39,096 nt of DNA from a virus (taxonomy: Duplodnaviria; Heunggongvirae; Uroviricota; Caudoviricetes): the IMG/VR virus record IMGVR_UViG_2851971941_000002; one strand, written 5' to 3'. This document shows positions 35,233 to 37,989 of the stretch, piece after piece; position 1 is the stretch's first letter, and each line of letters opens with the position of its first letter. Below the pieces are notes generated by a model, which made no database searches, was not told the origin of the DNA, and was given only the letters and a program-made list of their open reading frames with translations. A program made the position numbers and the translations under genes.

Positions 35233-35240
35233 TGTAGTGG

Positions 35241-35559
35241 TCAACAAAAACTGGCCACCGCTTTAGAGTTTTTCCAGTATCGGTTTTCCGATTCATTTGG
35301 TGGCAACCCACCGTTATATTCGTGCGGCCTGAGCGCGTTGTAATACCCAACGATATAGTCCGTTATTTCATGGGCAGCATCGCTGAAGTTCATGTAACCC
35401 GTCACCGGTATCCACTCGTTTTTCAGACTCCTGAAGAAGCGCTCCATCGGGCTGTTATCCCAGCAATTTCCTCGTCGACTCAGACTCTGTTTGATCTGGT
35501 AACGCCACAGTAACTGCCGGAACTGCCTGCTTGTATAGTGGCTGCCCTGGACGCCCTTC
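35241..35559 (-). pseudogene. IS911 orfB, 3' fragment
   Basis: Frame [102 protein letters not shown] matches the C-terminus of the IS911 OrfB transposase as recalled; separated from the 5' part by the nested IS. Confidence 0.8.
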
Positions 35560-35565
35560 TAAGAG

Positions 35566-36642
35566 TCAAGCCGTTATCGGGATGCTGTTGAGCTGCCTGT
35601 TTTGATTACGCAGTAATGTATAAACTTCGCGTGAGATATAGCGCTTCAGGCAGCGTATTGCTTCCATTTTTGTATGCCCTTCCGCTACTCGTCTGGCGAC
35701 ATATTCCTTCGTTTTATCGTCAGTTCGCAAACGTCCGATGGCAATGATGTGAAGTGCACTATTTGCAGCACGATCTCCACCCCGGTTAAGTCGATAACGA
35801 TTCGTTTTTCCTGAAGATACGGGAACAGGGCTGACACCACACAGTGCCGCAAAACCTGATTCTGATCTTAATCGTTGGGGATTGTCTCCTGCCGTGATCA
35901 GCAACTGCGAAGCGCTTTCGTATCCAATAGCATTACGTTTAATCAGTTCAGGCGCCAGCTCATCGACAATTGCCGCAATCATGACATCCAAATCAGCGAT
36001 TTCGTCATGTAACTCGAGATAGCGTCGGGCAAGGGACTTTAATGAAATACGATAAACGTTGGTAACATTGCGGTATTCACTGGCATCAGGCCGCCAGGAT
36101 CCCAGAGTCCTGATGAGCTGCATGCGCGTCATATTTCTGAGCTGTTCACGTAATTCATCCGGGGCAGAGATAATATTGGAATGGATAATCTGGAGAGCGA
36201 CTCTGCGGGCTGATATTGCTGTTTTTCGGCAAGTTTTTAATACCCGCAGAGACTCAATCATGCCATTGCGCGTTTTGGGTGTGACGGTTCTTATTCGGGA
36301 GAATGCGGCGTGAGCGGCACATTCAGCATCAATCGTGTCACTTTTACCCCGTTTGCGTCGCTCCATCCGATCTGGCGCAGTCACCTCAAGAACGTCTAAC
36401 CCGGCATTCTGTAAATAGCGAAGCAGACCTGATCCATAGGTGCCAGTACACTCAACACCAATTCGCTTTAATGCCCCAAACGAAGTCATCCATGCCAGCA
36501 TCTGCCGGTAACCTTGCCGTATTGTGGAGAAAAACTGGGTCCCCAGAACTTTATTGTTCTGATCTACGACAGCGGCAACGTGCAGATCTTTATGTGTATC
36601 CACGCCACCCACAACAGCGGTTTCCGTAACTTTACCTGCCAT
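35566..36642 (-). CDS. IS110-family (DEDD, RuvC-like) transposase/recombinase
   Basis: 358 aa; GGVDTHKDLHVAAV, VECTGTYG and KSDTIDAE motifs (DEDD catalytic core) and C-terminal GFAALCGVSPVPVSSGK region typical of IS110-family transposases. Confidence 0.9.
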   Translation of the reverse strand: MAGKVTETAVVGGVDTHKDLHVAAVVDQNNKVLGTQFFSTIRQGYRQMLAWMTSFGALKRIGVECTGTYGSGLLRYLQNAGLDVLEVTAPDRMERRKRGKSDTIDAECAAHAAFSRIRTVTPKTRNGMIESLRVLKTCRKTAISARRVALQIIHSNIISAPDELREQLRNMTRMQLIRTLGSWRPDASEYRNVTNVYRISLKSLARRYLELHDEIADLDVMIAAIVDELAPELIKRNAIGYESASQLLITAGDNPQRLRSESGFAALCGVSPVPVSSGKTNRYRLNRGGDRAANSALHIIAIGRLRTDDKTKEYVARRVAEGHTKMEAIRCLKRYISREVYTLLRNQNRQLNSIPITA

Positions 36643-36923
36643 AACAGAGCTCCTGTGAGGAAACAGAGTTGAATCTCCAGACAGATAACCCGGACAGGAC
36701 AGTAACGAGACAAACCGTCAGGCCCTTCTTGAGTCACGCGCATCGGTGAGGAGACGCCTCGCATGAAGGCGCTTCCGGCAACCGACAGGTCCAGGGCAGG
36801 ACACAAAGGGTCGATCGCTGTGTGAGTCAGGATGCGGGAAGGTCTTCACTGCATCAGTAATCACACCAGTCTGGTTAAACAGCAAACAGAGTGATGATAA
36901 AAACTGATACCGGCATTATTACT
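36643..36923 (-). ncRNA. candidate bridge-RNA region of the IS110-family element (5' non-coding end)
   Basis: 281-bp non-coding stretch between the element's 5' boundary and the transposase start, the position where IS110-group elements such as IS621 were reported to encode a structured guide-like bridge RNA; no structure prediction could be run here. Confidence 0.3.
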
Positions 36924-37449
36924 ATCGCTGTGGAACATTACCCCGGCTGGTTTACTGCGGATTTCCTAGGCCATTTTCAGCGCTTTGATGGTCAGTCTGC
37001 TGTCCGGAGAGAACGACATTGCCCAACCTACCGGTTTCCTTGCAAACAGGTCGAGAACAACGGCAAGGTATGCCCAACGTTTCCCCGTCCAGATGTACGT
37101 CACGTCGCCGCACCATACCTGATTTGGCTCTGTCACTGCGAACTGCCGCCCAAGGTGATTCGGGATAGTGACATGTTCACGACCACCTCGTTTATAACGG
37201 TGCGCAGGCTGCTGGCAACTGACCAGTCCCAGTTCTTTCATGAGCCTGCCGGCAAGCCAGCGCCCCATTCTGAAGCCTCTCAGGGTTGCCATTGTGGCGA
37301 TGCTTCTTGCCCCGGCAGAACCTGATGTTATGCAACTCAAGTACCTGACTGCGTAATACAGCCCGTCTGCCGTCTGGTTTTTCAGGACGGTTTTTCCAGT
37401 ATCTGTAGCTGCTGCGATGAACCCCGAACACATGGCAGAGTGTGACCAC
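36924..37449 (-). pseudogene. IS911 orfB, 5' fragment (in-frame stop and frame shifts)
   Basis: Frames [34 protein letters not shown] and [119 protein letters not shown] match IS911 OrfB as recalled but in two frames, then a TAG where the recalled OrfB has Trp. Confidence 0.75.
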
Positions 37450-37475
37450 AGGATAATGCGCTCTGAGTTTCCCGA

Positions 37476-37808
37476 TTATCGAGAACTGTTCAGGGAGTCT
37501 GACATCAAGAGCGCGGTAGCCTTTTTTAATATTTCATTCTCCATTTCAATGCGTTGTAGCTTTTTCCTCAGCTCACGTATTTCGATTTGTTCTGGTGTTA
37601 TCGGAGAGGCTTTTGGTGTTTTGCCCTGACGCTCATCACGCAGTTGTTTGACCCATCTTGTCATTGTGGAAAGGCCGATATCCATAGCTTTGGCGGCATC
37701 TGCCACCGTGTAGTTCTGGTCAACAACCAGTTGAGCGGATTCGCGTTTAAACTCTGCGCTGAAATTTCTTTTTTCATTGGAGCACCTGTGTTGTTCTGAG
37801 GTGAGCAT
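37476..37808 (-). CDS. IS911 orfA-like (IS3-family transposase N-terminal helix-turn-helix subunit), start region altered
   Basis: ...[98 protein letters not shown] matches IS911 OrfA as recalled; the canonical ATG AAA AAA lies in another frame because the A-run is one base shorter than recalled (uncertain); the ORF-track start lies inside the IR. Confidence 0.7.
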
Positions 37809-37849
37809 ATCACCTCTGTTCAGGTGGCCAAATTCAGTGTGCCACTACA

Positions 37850-37989
37850 CACCGGCAATGAAACAAGGTCGACTATGGCGAGTACGTGAGGACGCAGAGT
37901 TAGTTGGAGAATTAGTTACTCCTGTCATTAAGAAAAGTGATTCTATTATTCTACAAAGGATTTTAAGTAATGGCAGCCAGACCACGTAA
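37850..37989 (+). pseudogene. xis: probable excisionase (xis) 3' remnant truncated by IS911
   Basis: Open frame ...PAMKQGRLWRVREDAELVGELVTPVIKKSDSIILQRILSNGSQTT ends 20 nt inside int, as the lambda xis-int overlap does; weak resemblance to the lambda Xis C-terminal half; begins at the IS911 boundary. Confidence 0.35.

Follow-up and report, generated by a model that had tools for sequence, protein, structure and literature searches.

An IS911-like element interrupted by ISEc21 as the probable scar of a deletion or recombination in an icd prophage of Escherichia coli

The DNA analysed here (IMG/VR record IMGVR_UViG_2851971941_000002, 39,096 nt; hereafter the window) has 100% identity to positions 3659783-3698878 of the avian isolate E. 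coli PSUO2 (NZ_CP011915.1), and is the central 39 kb of a lambdoid prophage of about 47.7 kb located in icd. The feature of interest is an insertion sequence (IS) block at 35233-37849, which separates the replication gene O from what is left of the excisionase gene xis. On the minus strand, the window carries in order the genes for tail, head, terminase and lysis, Q, the nin genes, an inverse autotransporter gene, P and O, while the plus strand carries the truncated xis followed by int. Both prophage ends lie outside of the window. On the left are sitABCD, a gene for a 256-aa hypothetical protein and attR, a displaced 3' fragment of icd at positions 3654252-3654419 of the PSUO2 record (locus L011, 4253-4420), and on the right are a defence gene pair and icd itself (attL). 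The order from attR is thus the hypothetical gene, sitABCD, the window, an HNH gene, an AAA-ATPase gene and icd, with icd 3 kb downstream of the xis-int module of the window. Genome comparisons employed 5,426 complete E. coli genomes.

The insertion sequence block and its flanks

The IS block occupies exactly 35233-37849, with the ends TGTAGTGGTCAACAAAAACTGGCCACC... and ...GGTGGCCAAATTCAGTGTGCCACTACA. Both ends start with TGTAGTGG and contain TGGCCACC, forming imperfect inverted repeats that begin 5'-TG. The block consists of one degenerate IS911-like element of the IS3 family (1,243 bp) that is interrupted by a 1,374-bp ISEc21 of the IS110 family. After removal of 35550-36923, the remaining 1,243 bp can be aligned over the whole length of an intact copy of 1,249 bp from E. 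coli 536 at 99.3% identity, the differences being three substitutions, a 5-nt deletion and a 1-nt deletion. One of the substitutions converts a TGG codon to a TAG stop, and this stop together with the two deletions inactivates the outer element. The copy in strain 536 is bounded by a 3-bp direct repeat (CAC/CAC), which fixes both the IS ends and the expected size of the target duplication.

The outer element has the organization of the IS3 family, with an orfA matching HTH_Tnp_1 (E value 1.8e-13) and an orfB matching rve (1.6e-14) and rve_3 (4.4e-08) in Pfam, and its length is within the approximately 1.2-1.3 kb of that family. It shares 90.05% identity over 764 nt with the curated IS911A remnant of K-12, a remnant that is likewise split, in that case by IS30. 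In ISfinder, copies of the same IS are expected to have at least about 90-95% nucleotide identity to the reference, and the Prokaryotic Genome Annotation Pipeline (PGAP) provides only the name 'IS3 family transposase'; the designation IS911-like is used here. Sequences matching the element occur at 15,529 places in 4,690 genomes. Its right-end part (35233-35549, minus strand) comprises the 3' end of orfB (Pfam rve_3/rve_2) together with TGTAGTGGTCAACAAAAACTGGCCACC, the right inverted repeat (IRR), is collinear with positions 1-317 of the 536 copy, and is annotated as partial by PGAP. The left part (36924-37849, minus strand) includes the left inverted repeat, orfA and the 5' two-thirds of orfB (HTH_Tnp_1 and rve), and PGAP describes it as frameshifted and incomplete.

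The inserted ISEc21 (35550-36923, minus strand) was identified by PGAP as an ISEc21 family transposase and by the Pfam domains DEDD_Tnp_IS110 (1.7e-19) and Transposase_20 (2.2e-12). Its transposase open reading frame (ORF; 35566-36642, 358 aa) is intact and is preceded by a non-coding region of 281 nt (36643-36923), predicted to be of the seekRNA type; an Rfam scan of 33000-39096 returned no matches. The element sits in orfB between ...CACAGCGAT and CAGGGCAGC... (minus strand; HSD and QGS codons), without loss or duplication of host sequence and with no gap relative to the 536 copy. Nesting of ISEc21 at the same site of IS3-family elements was found in 379 of the 5,426 genomes, including pairs that are only about 90% identical, and is already known biology. 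The length, the 358-aa transposase and the target of this copy agree with the published description of ISEc21 (Siddiquee et al. 2024, PMC11187229). The example hosts in that paper are ISCfr6, ISEc92 and ISEc93, whereas the host here is an IS911-like element; otherwise this is a typical copy. Given its intact transposase, its non-coding region and its cognate target, ISEc21 may be the sole active mobile element in the scar.

On the O side, homology to the functional phage 4A7 and to the prophages of LF82 and SaT040 ends exactly at 35232. The O pseudogene (34309-35232, minus strand; Phage_rep_O 2.7e-34; 'frameshifted' according to PGAP) lacks its first five nucleotides, ATGGC, i.e., the start codon and 2 nt, along with the ribosome-binding site and all upstream DNA. 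Where 4A7 reads GGGAGGAATT-ATGGC followed by AAACACTGCTGAG, the window keeps AAACACTG..., and the first retained codon aligns with residue 3 of lambda O; under the longer PGAP gene model of the relatives, 95 nt of O would be missing. Alignment with the O genes of 4A7 and SaT040 revealed in addition a 1-nt deletion between 34560 and 34561. The five copies of the ori iteron within O (34770-34886) are present, and P (33611-34312, minus strand; Phage_lambda_P 1.6e-61; replication protein P in PGAP) comes first among the intact genes that lie downstream of the scar in the rightward operon. The O-P segment is 96.5-98.8% identical to those of LF82, SaT040 and 4A7. A lambda-type replication module comprising O with its iterons and P is therefore present, but O, start-less and frameshifted, is predicted to be non-functional.

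On the other side, the match to intact e14-type prophages (93% identity) sets in exactly at 37850, the base equivalent to nt 107 of xisE, a gene of 246 nt. The remnant (37850-37989, plus strand) represents the last 140 of these 246 nt and matches the excisionase family PHROG 629 (1.6e-11; profile positions 37-80 of 82). The 62-aa 'excisionase' of PGAP and RefSeq (37801-37989, plus strand; WP_071589359.1) is a chimeric ORF beginning inside the IS inverted repeat. The adjoining e14-type intE (37970-39096, plus strand) is a pseudogene that PGAP also annotates as frameshifted. A 1-nt deletion after 38487, relative to intact intE, divides it into an N-terminal ORF with Arm-DNA-bind_1 (5.8e-38) and a C-terminal ORF with Phage_integrase (2.4e-16). 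The intE-xisE segment has 88.4% nucleotide identity to e14 of K-12. An e14-type integration module, with an integrase and an excisionase gene near icd, is recognisable, and both genes are defective.

The triplets flanking the IS block are TTT (35230-35232) and CAC (37850-37852), so the block lacks a 3-bp target duplication. Because the same IS in strain 536 does possess such a duplication, its absence here indicates deletion or IS-IS recombination, and is not evidence against membership in the IS3 family. A first-pass annotation of the window, made from its sequence, had placed an IS at 35233-37849 between a 5'-truncated O and a 3' remnant of xis at 37850-37989, and had interpreted the joint as an IS-mediated deletion or IS-IS recombination. 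These proposals were borne out, and both endpoints were confirmed by alignment to lambda and to intact relatives. The truncation of O is minimal, involving only ATGGC and the sequence upstream, and the 'IS911 composite' of that annotation proved, from PGAP, Pfam and the 536 alignment, to be a single IS911-like element with a nested ISEc21. The flanking triplets do differ, as had been noted, and TTT was correct; the triplet reported as ACC is CAC, one base away.

The complete IS ends might also suggest a simple insertion in which nothing was lost, and nothing further points in that direction. The O and xis flanks are 7.1-9.6 kb apart in every intact relative (7.1-7.4 kb from the start of O to the start of xis in LF82, SaT040 and 4A7, and 9.6 kb in lambda), O has lost its start and xis 106 nt, and the 3-bp duplication seen for the same IS in 536 is lacking. 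Simple insertion was rejected on the truncation of O and xis, the missing duplication and the absent early region described below, and is considered extremely improbable. It is highly probable, on the other hand, that 35233-37849 is a deletion or recombination joint marked by a dead IS911-like element, which ISEc21 either invaded later or had invaded already.

Loss of the early region and predicted state of the prophage

BLAST analyses with the early regions of SaT040 (locus L006, 14336-22450), LF82, 4A7 and e14-like prophages revealed no counterparts in the window between O and int. The same comparisons yielded no match in the window to cII/YdaT, cro, cI, kil, gam, bet, exo or the small left-arm genes, and the sole similarity beyond the junctions was the 63% relation between the two integrase types. 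In the PGAP annotation of the full 47.7-kb prophage, including the parts beyond the window, there is no repressor, Cro, N or recombination gene, and the unnamed ORFs were assigned only to PHROGs of unknown or lysis function, with no match to Pfam regulator families. The early and immunity region is therefore gone, as the first-pass annotation had maintained; neither cI, cro or N elsewhere in the prophage (annotation and family scans) nor contiguous O and xis flanks in any relative were found, either of which would have spoken against that claim. The same annotation was also correct that these flanks lie far apart in intact phages, while the loss of 9-10 kb from one lambda-type prophage is not established, since the flanks are of different lineages.

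The joint places the rightward replication and late arm of a lambdoid prophage, from nt 6 of O onward, next to the final 140 nt of an e14-type xis, beyond which lie intE, a Septu-like gene pair and icd. The physically absent components comprise cI, cro, pL and pR with their operators, N and the nut sites, cII and cIII, exo-bet-gam-kil, and the 5' part of xis. A prophage without cI, the operators, pL/pR and N is expected to have neither immunity nor an early transcription programme. No pR transcript would mean no normal route to the expression of O, P and Q and no antitermination of late genes; with Q deprived of its normal upstream promoter, the late genes would stay terminated at tR'. Excision would fail with no Xis and a frameshifted Int, and a frameshifted O without a start codon would not be expected to fire ori. 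From this gene content we infer that the prophage is non-inducible. Because a repressor, functional Int and Xis and a functional O are lacking, it is predicted to be fixed in the chromosome as an island that keeps sitABCD, iss, the lom-like gene, the inverse autotransporter and the PtuA/HNH pair.

Residual activity is conceivable. The IS genes are all on the minus strand, like O, P and Q, and read-out from the IS, by way of the orfAB or ISEc21 promoters or of a hybrid promoter, would be the sole possible upstream source of transcription into P, nin and Q; it could allow late and lysis genes to be expressed or rescued without excision. Q and the lysis, terminase and head genes are intact according to their annotation, as are most tail genes. 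Across the IS/O joint lies a promoter-like site (35244-35215, minus strand) from which O'-P could be transcribed, with a -35 TTGACC in the IRR, an 18-nt spacer including TG, and a -10 GATATT in O, although such a hybrid IRR/O promoter is speculative. A scan for promoters and terminators gave counts that were not above those of shuffled sequence (for promoter-like sites, 7 versus 5.7 +/- 2.4), N and the nut sites needed to pass terminators are missing, and O is both frameshifted and devoid of a start codon. Conditional activity of this kind is thus rather unlikely.

PGAP flags a side tail-fibre gene (1029-2733, minus strand) as truncated, with loss of its C-terminus, and marks all remaining genes for head, tail, terminase, lysis and Q as intact. 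The earlier description of a cryptic prophage with intact morphogenesis and lysis modules thus holds for the most part, the tail fibre excepted, and the frameshifts in O and int represent more decay than it had stated. Since the head, tail and lysis genes are complete, prophage-prediction tools may score this prophage as 'intact'. In strains of the PSUO2 type and in sequence type (ST) 1193, the icd prophage is best treated as a fixed island and not as a mobile or inducible phage, which bears on estimates of induction and transduction risk.

Distribution of the scar and origin of the joint

The whole arrangement at 33400-39096 was found in 80 of the 5,426 genomes, including ST1193 reference strains, and the hosts and sources of these 80 include poultry, humans, marsupials, a cockatoo, a musk deer, a dog and river water. 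The intE allele with its cargo occurs at 99% identity or more in 81 genomes, none of which has an intact xis, and all are cut at the same xis position. The ST1193 reference MCJCHV-1 (locus L092) matches the window without a single mismatch at all four junctions, at the TAG stop and at the two frameshifts, and because of this identity the scar shared with ST1193 points to one ancestral event that was stably inherited. In MCJCHV-1 an additional IS30 is present in the dead IS911-like element, at window position 37516/37517 (L092 7603-8754), so that up to three IS layers are nested in the scar, with ISEc21 in the IS911-like element and, in ST1193, IS30 as well. Besides the identical scar, the ST1193 genomes exhibit a 23-nt deletion in the O region. 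The scar could serve as a stable lineage marker.

These data also bear on the possibility of an assembly artefact. Copies of the outer IS are numerous, at the 15,529 places mentioned above, and a collapse or misjoin across such repeats could in principle create a false joint. The same 5.7-kb arrangement recurs, however, in 80 genomes that were sequenced independently, by several laboratories and from several hosts, and the ST1193 genomes have the same junctions in spite of their extra IS30. With 80 independent assemblies in agreement, an artefact was rejected and has a negligible probability.

Several points nonetheless weigh against the interpretation of the block as a deletion or recombination joint. 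Transposition in the IS3 family follows a copy-out-paste-in mechanism and does not by itself generate adjacent deletions. A separate deletion step would be required, either RecA-mediated recombination between IS copies or an aberrant transposition. None of the 5,426 genomes contained an intermediate with a simple insertion, whether one in which the IS lies in xisE between duplicated CAC triplets or one in which it lies at the beginning of O between duplicated TTT triplets. No intact prophage was found with this exact intE allele, or with the allele and the PtuA/HNH cargo, the next best alleles having at most 94% identity; the ancestor thus lies outside the sampled genomes, and the sequence of events escapes reconstruction. 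Finally, a tandem array of an e14-type and a 21-type prophage at icd was not found among the two intE lysogens that were viewed, no systematic search having been made: ESBL 15 contains a single e14-like prophage, and the stretch available for 22AR0747 ended before the far end of the prophage. We nevertheless retain the deletion or recombination joint, and regard the scar as ordinary IS-driven prophage decay that raises no new mechanistic question.

Judged by their sequences, the two flanks of the joint are of different lineages, the arm from O to sitABCD being of the phage 21/Perceval type and the xis-int module of the e14 type. The relatives of the former arm at icd (LF82/Perceval, SaT040, CFIAFB20120266 and 4A7) have 21-type xis and int genes beside icd, with an int that is 63% identical. 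Conversely, yfdR, an e14-like gene, is directly upstream of intact xisE in all 40 genomes listed, out of 110 with an intact xisE. Both intE prophages that were fully inspected (L008 and L093) have a complete e14-like early region with yfdR, yfdQ, yfdP, a LexA-like repressor gene and ymfL. From IMG/VR, 80 loci with related integrases were retrieved, and all 36 contigs whose intE has 92% or greater amino acid identity contain an intact xisE and an e14-like, never a Perceval-like, early region. Perceval-type left-arm genes (TraR/ASCH/DUF4222) were found within approximately 1.4 kb of xisE-intE in none of the 5,426 genomes.

It is accordingly attractive to propose that the joint fuses two icd-integrating prophages, the sit phage and an e14-type phage, by IS-IS recombination or IS-mediated deletion, a proposal whose chances we put at about even and which is slightly favoured. 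In its explicit form, a tandem of an e14-type prophage next to icd and a sit phage of the 21/Perceval type might have collapsed in one IS-mediated event with the loss of at least about 45 kb, and this version is an evenly balanced proposition. A loss of that size, or greater, would comprise nearly the whole e14-like phage as well as int21, xis21 and the sit phage's early region. In K-12, double lysogens with e14 and 21 side by side have reportedly been made. If two prophages were indeed fused, a single step would have locked sitABCD, iss, the autotransporter and the Septu-like pair in place within a lineage to which the pandemic ExPEC (extraintestinal pathogenic E. coli) clone ST1193 belongs.

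The loss could also have been much smaller. In a single mosaic phage, i.e., a Perceval/4A7-like sit phage with an e14-type int-xis-cargo module, an IS that entered xis or the beginning of O might have removed 7-10 kb. Only a small deletion is then needed, swapping of integration modules is commonplace in lambdoid phages, and no mosaic junction located between xis and O would have survived. IS insertions do occur in the left-arm region of related prophages, e.g., IS100 in L007 and ISEc52 in H342-H344. Both integrase types use icd, to judge from the title of Wang et al. 1997, as cited in PMC12803456, which assigns phage 21 and e14 to the same icd attB. This mosaic phage has, on the other side, not been encountered: 31 of the 33 phage-collection records matching this int are lambda-like and have at most about 63-64% identity to the e14-type int-xis, over about half of it, and the IMG/VR contigs and the search for TraR/ASCH/DUF4222 yielded no example (0 of 36 and 0 of 5,426, respectively). 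Moreover, the change from one lineage to the other falls exactly at the IS. A small deletion in one mosaic phage is therefore a plausible but somewhat less than even prospect, and the collapse of a tandem lysogen is at least as likely.

Accessory genes and comparison with known prophages

Among the remaining genes of the window, two that are associated with virulence are intact, iss, a bor homologue (23962-24255, plus strand), and a gene for an outer-membrane protein of the Ail/Lom family (2798-3397, minus strand). The inverse autotransporter (29453-33361, minus strand; 1,302 aa) is intimin/invasin-like and is located in the slot occupied by ren-emrE-ybcK in LF82 and 4A7. It contains two near-identical tandem repeats of about 355 nt (31341-31697 and 31698-32052), and the allele has a length of 3,909 nt versus 4,266 nt in L007. 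The segment comprising Q, holin and endolysin is unlike that of LF82 and SaT040 (quuD-ompC/nmpC-essD), with 24748-26520 having no nucleotide match there, and is another mosaic exchange within the family. Between intE and icd, outside of the window, the Septu-like cargo (locus L001, 11966-14340) encodes a PtuA-like AAA ATPase (PADLOC PtuA, 2e-239) and an HNH partner (PDC-M01B, 1e-114). Other intE-type prophages have different genes in the slot from int to icd, e.g., DUF262, and the slot looks like a variable defence hotspot.

A prophage or island in icd with sit and iss is a known feature of ExPEC and adherent-invasive E. coli (AIEC; PMC12803456). A literature search located descriptions of this icd prophage or island in ExPEC and AIEC, none of which included the particular scar reported here. 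The inducible relatives are Perceval of LF82, 4A7 (Bievrevirus), SaT040 of ST131 and the NC-SV type, all of which share the icd site, sitABCD and iss, and SaT040 also carries the same inverse autotransporter. These relatives keep 7.1-7.4 kb with cII-cro-cI-kil-gam-bet-exo and related genes between O and xis, and have 21-type xis and int genes beside icd without defence cargo. The same icd site is used by e14 and by e14-like prophages (HK97-like or myovirus-tailed), whose cargo slot between int and icd is variable; in the prophage described here, nothing of the e14-like phage is left but the last 140 nt of xisE, intE with its frameshift, and the cargo.

Among curated prophages, DLP12 of K-12 is the closest analogue. 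The two prophages share a right-arm backbone that includes ybcN-ninE-ybcO-rusA-ylcG-Q, the lysis genes and the bor/iss homologue, and DLP12 has ren-emrE-ybcK, as do LF82 and 4A7. DLP12 is also devoid of an early and immunity region, exoD' adjoining the P fragment 'peaD with everything from bet through O missing, and its xis is likewise a pseudogene. An IS3-family element, IS3 itself, is present in the scar region of DLP12 as a simple insertion in renD; the DLP12 joint is, however, free of IS sequences, whereas in the prophage of PSUO2 the IS is exactly at the joint. Furthermore, DLP12 occupies argU, has an int of its own, and has lost most of P and all of O, in contrast to the icd prophage, in which P is intact and O lacks 5 nt.

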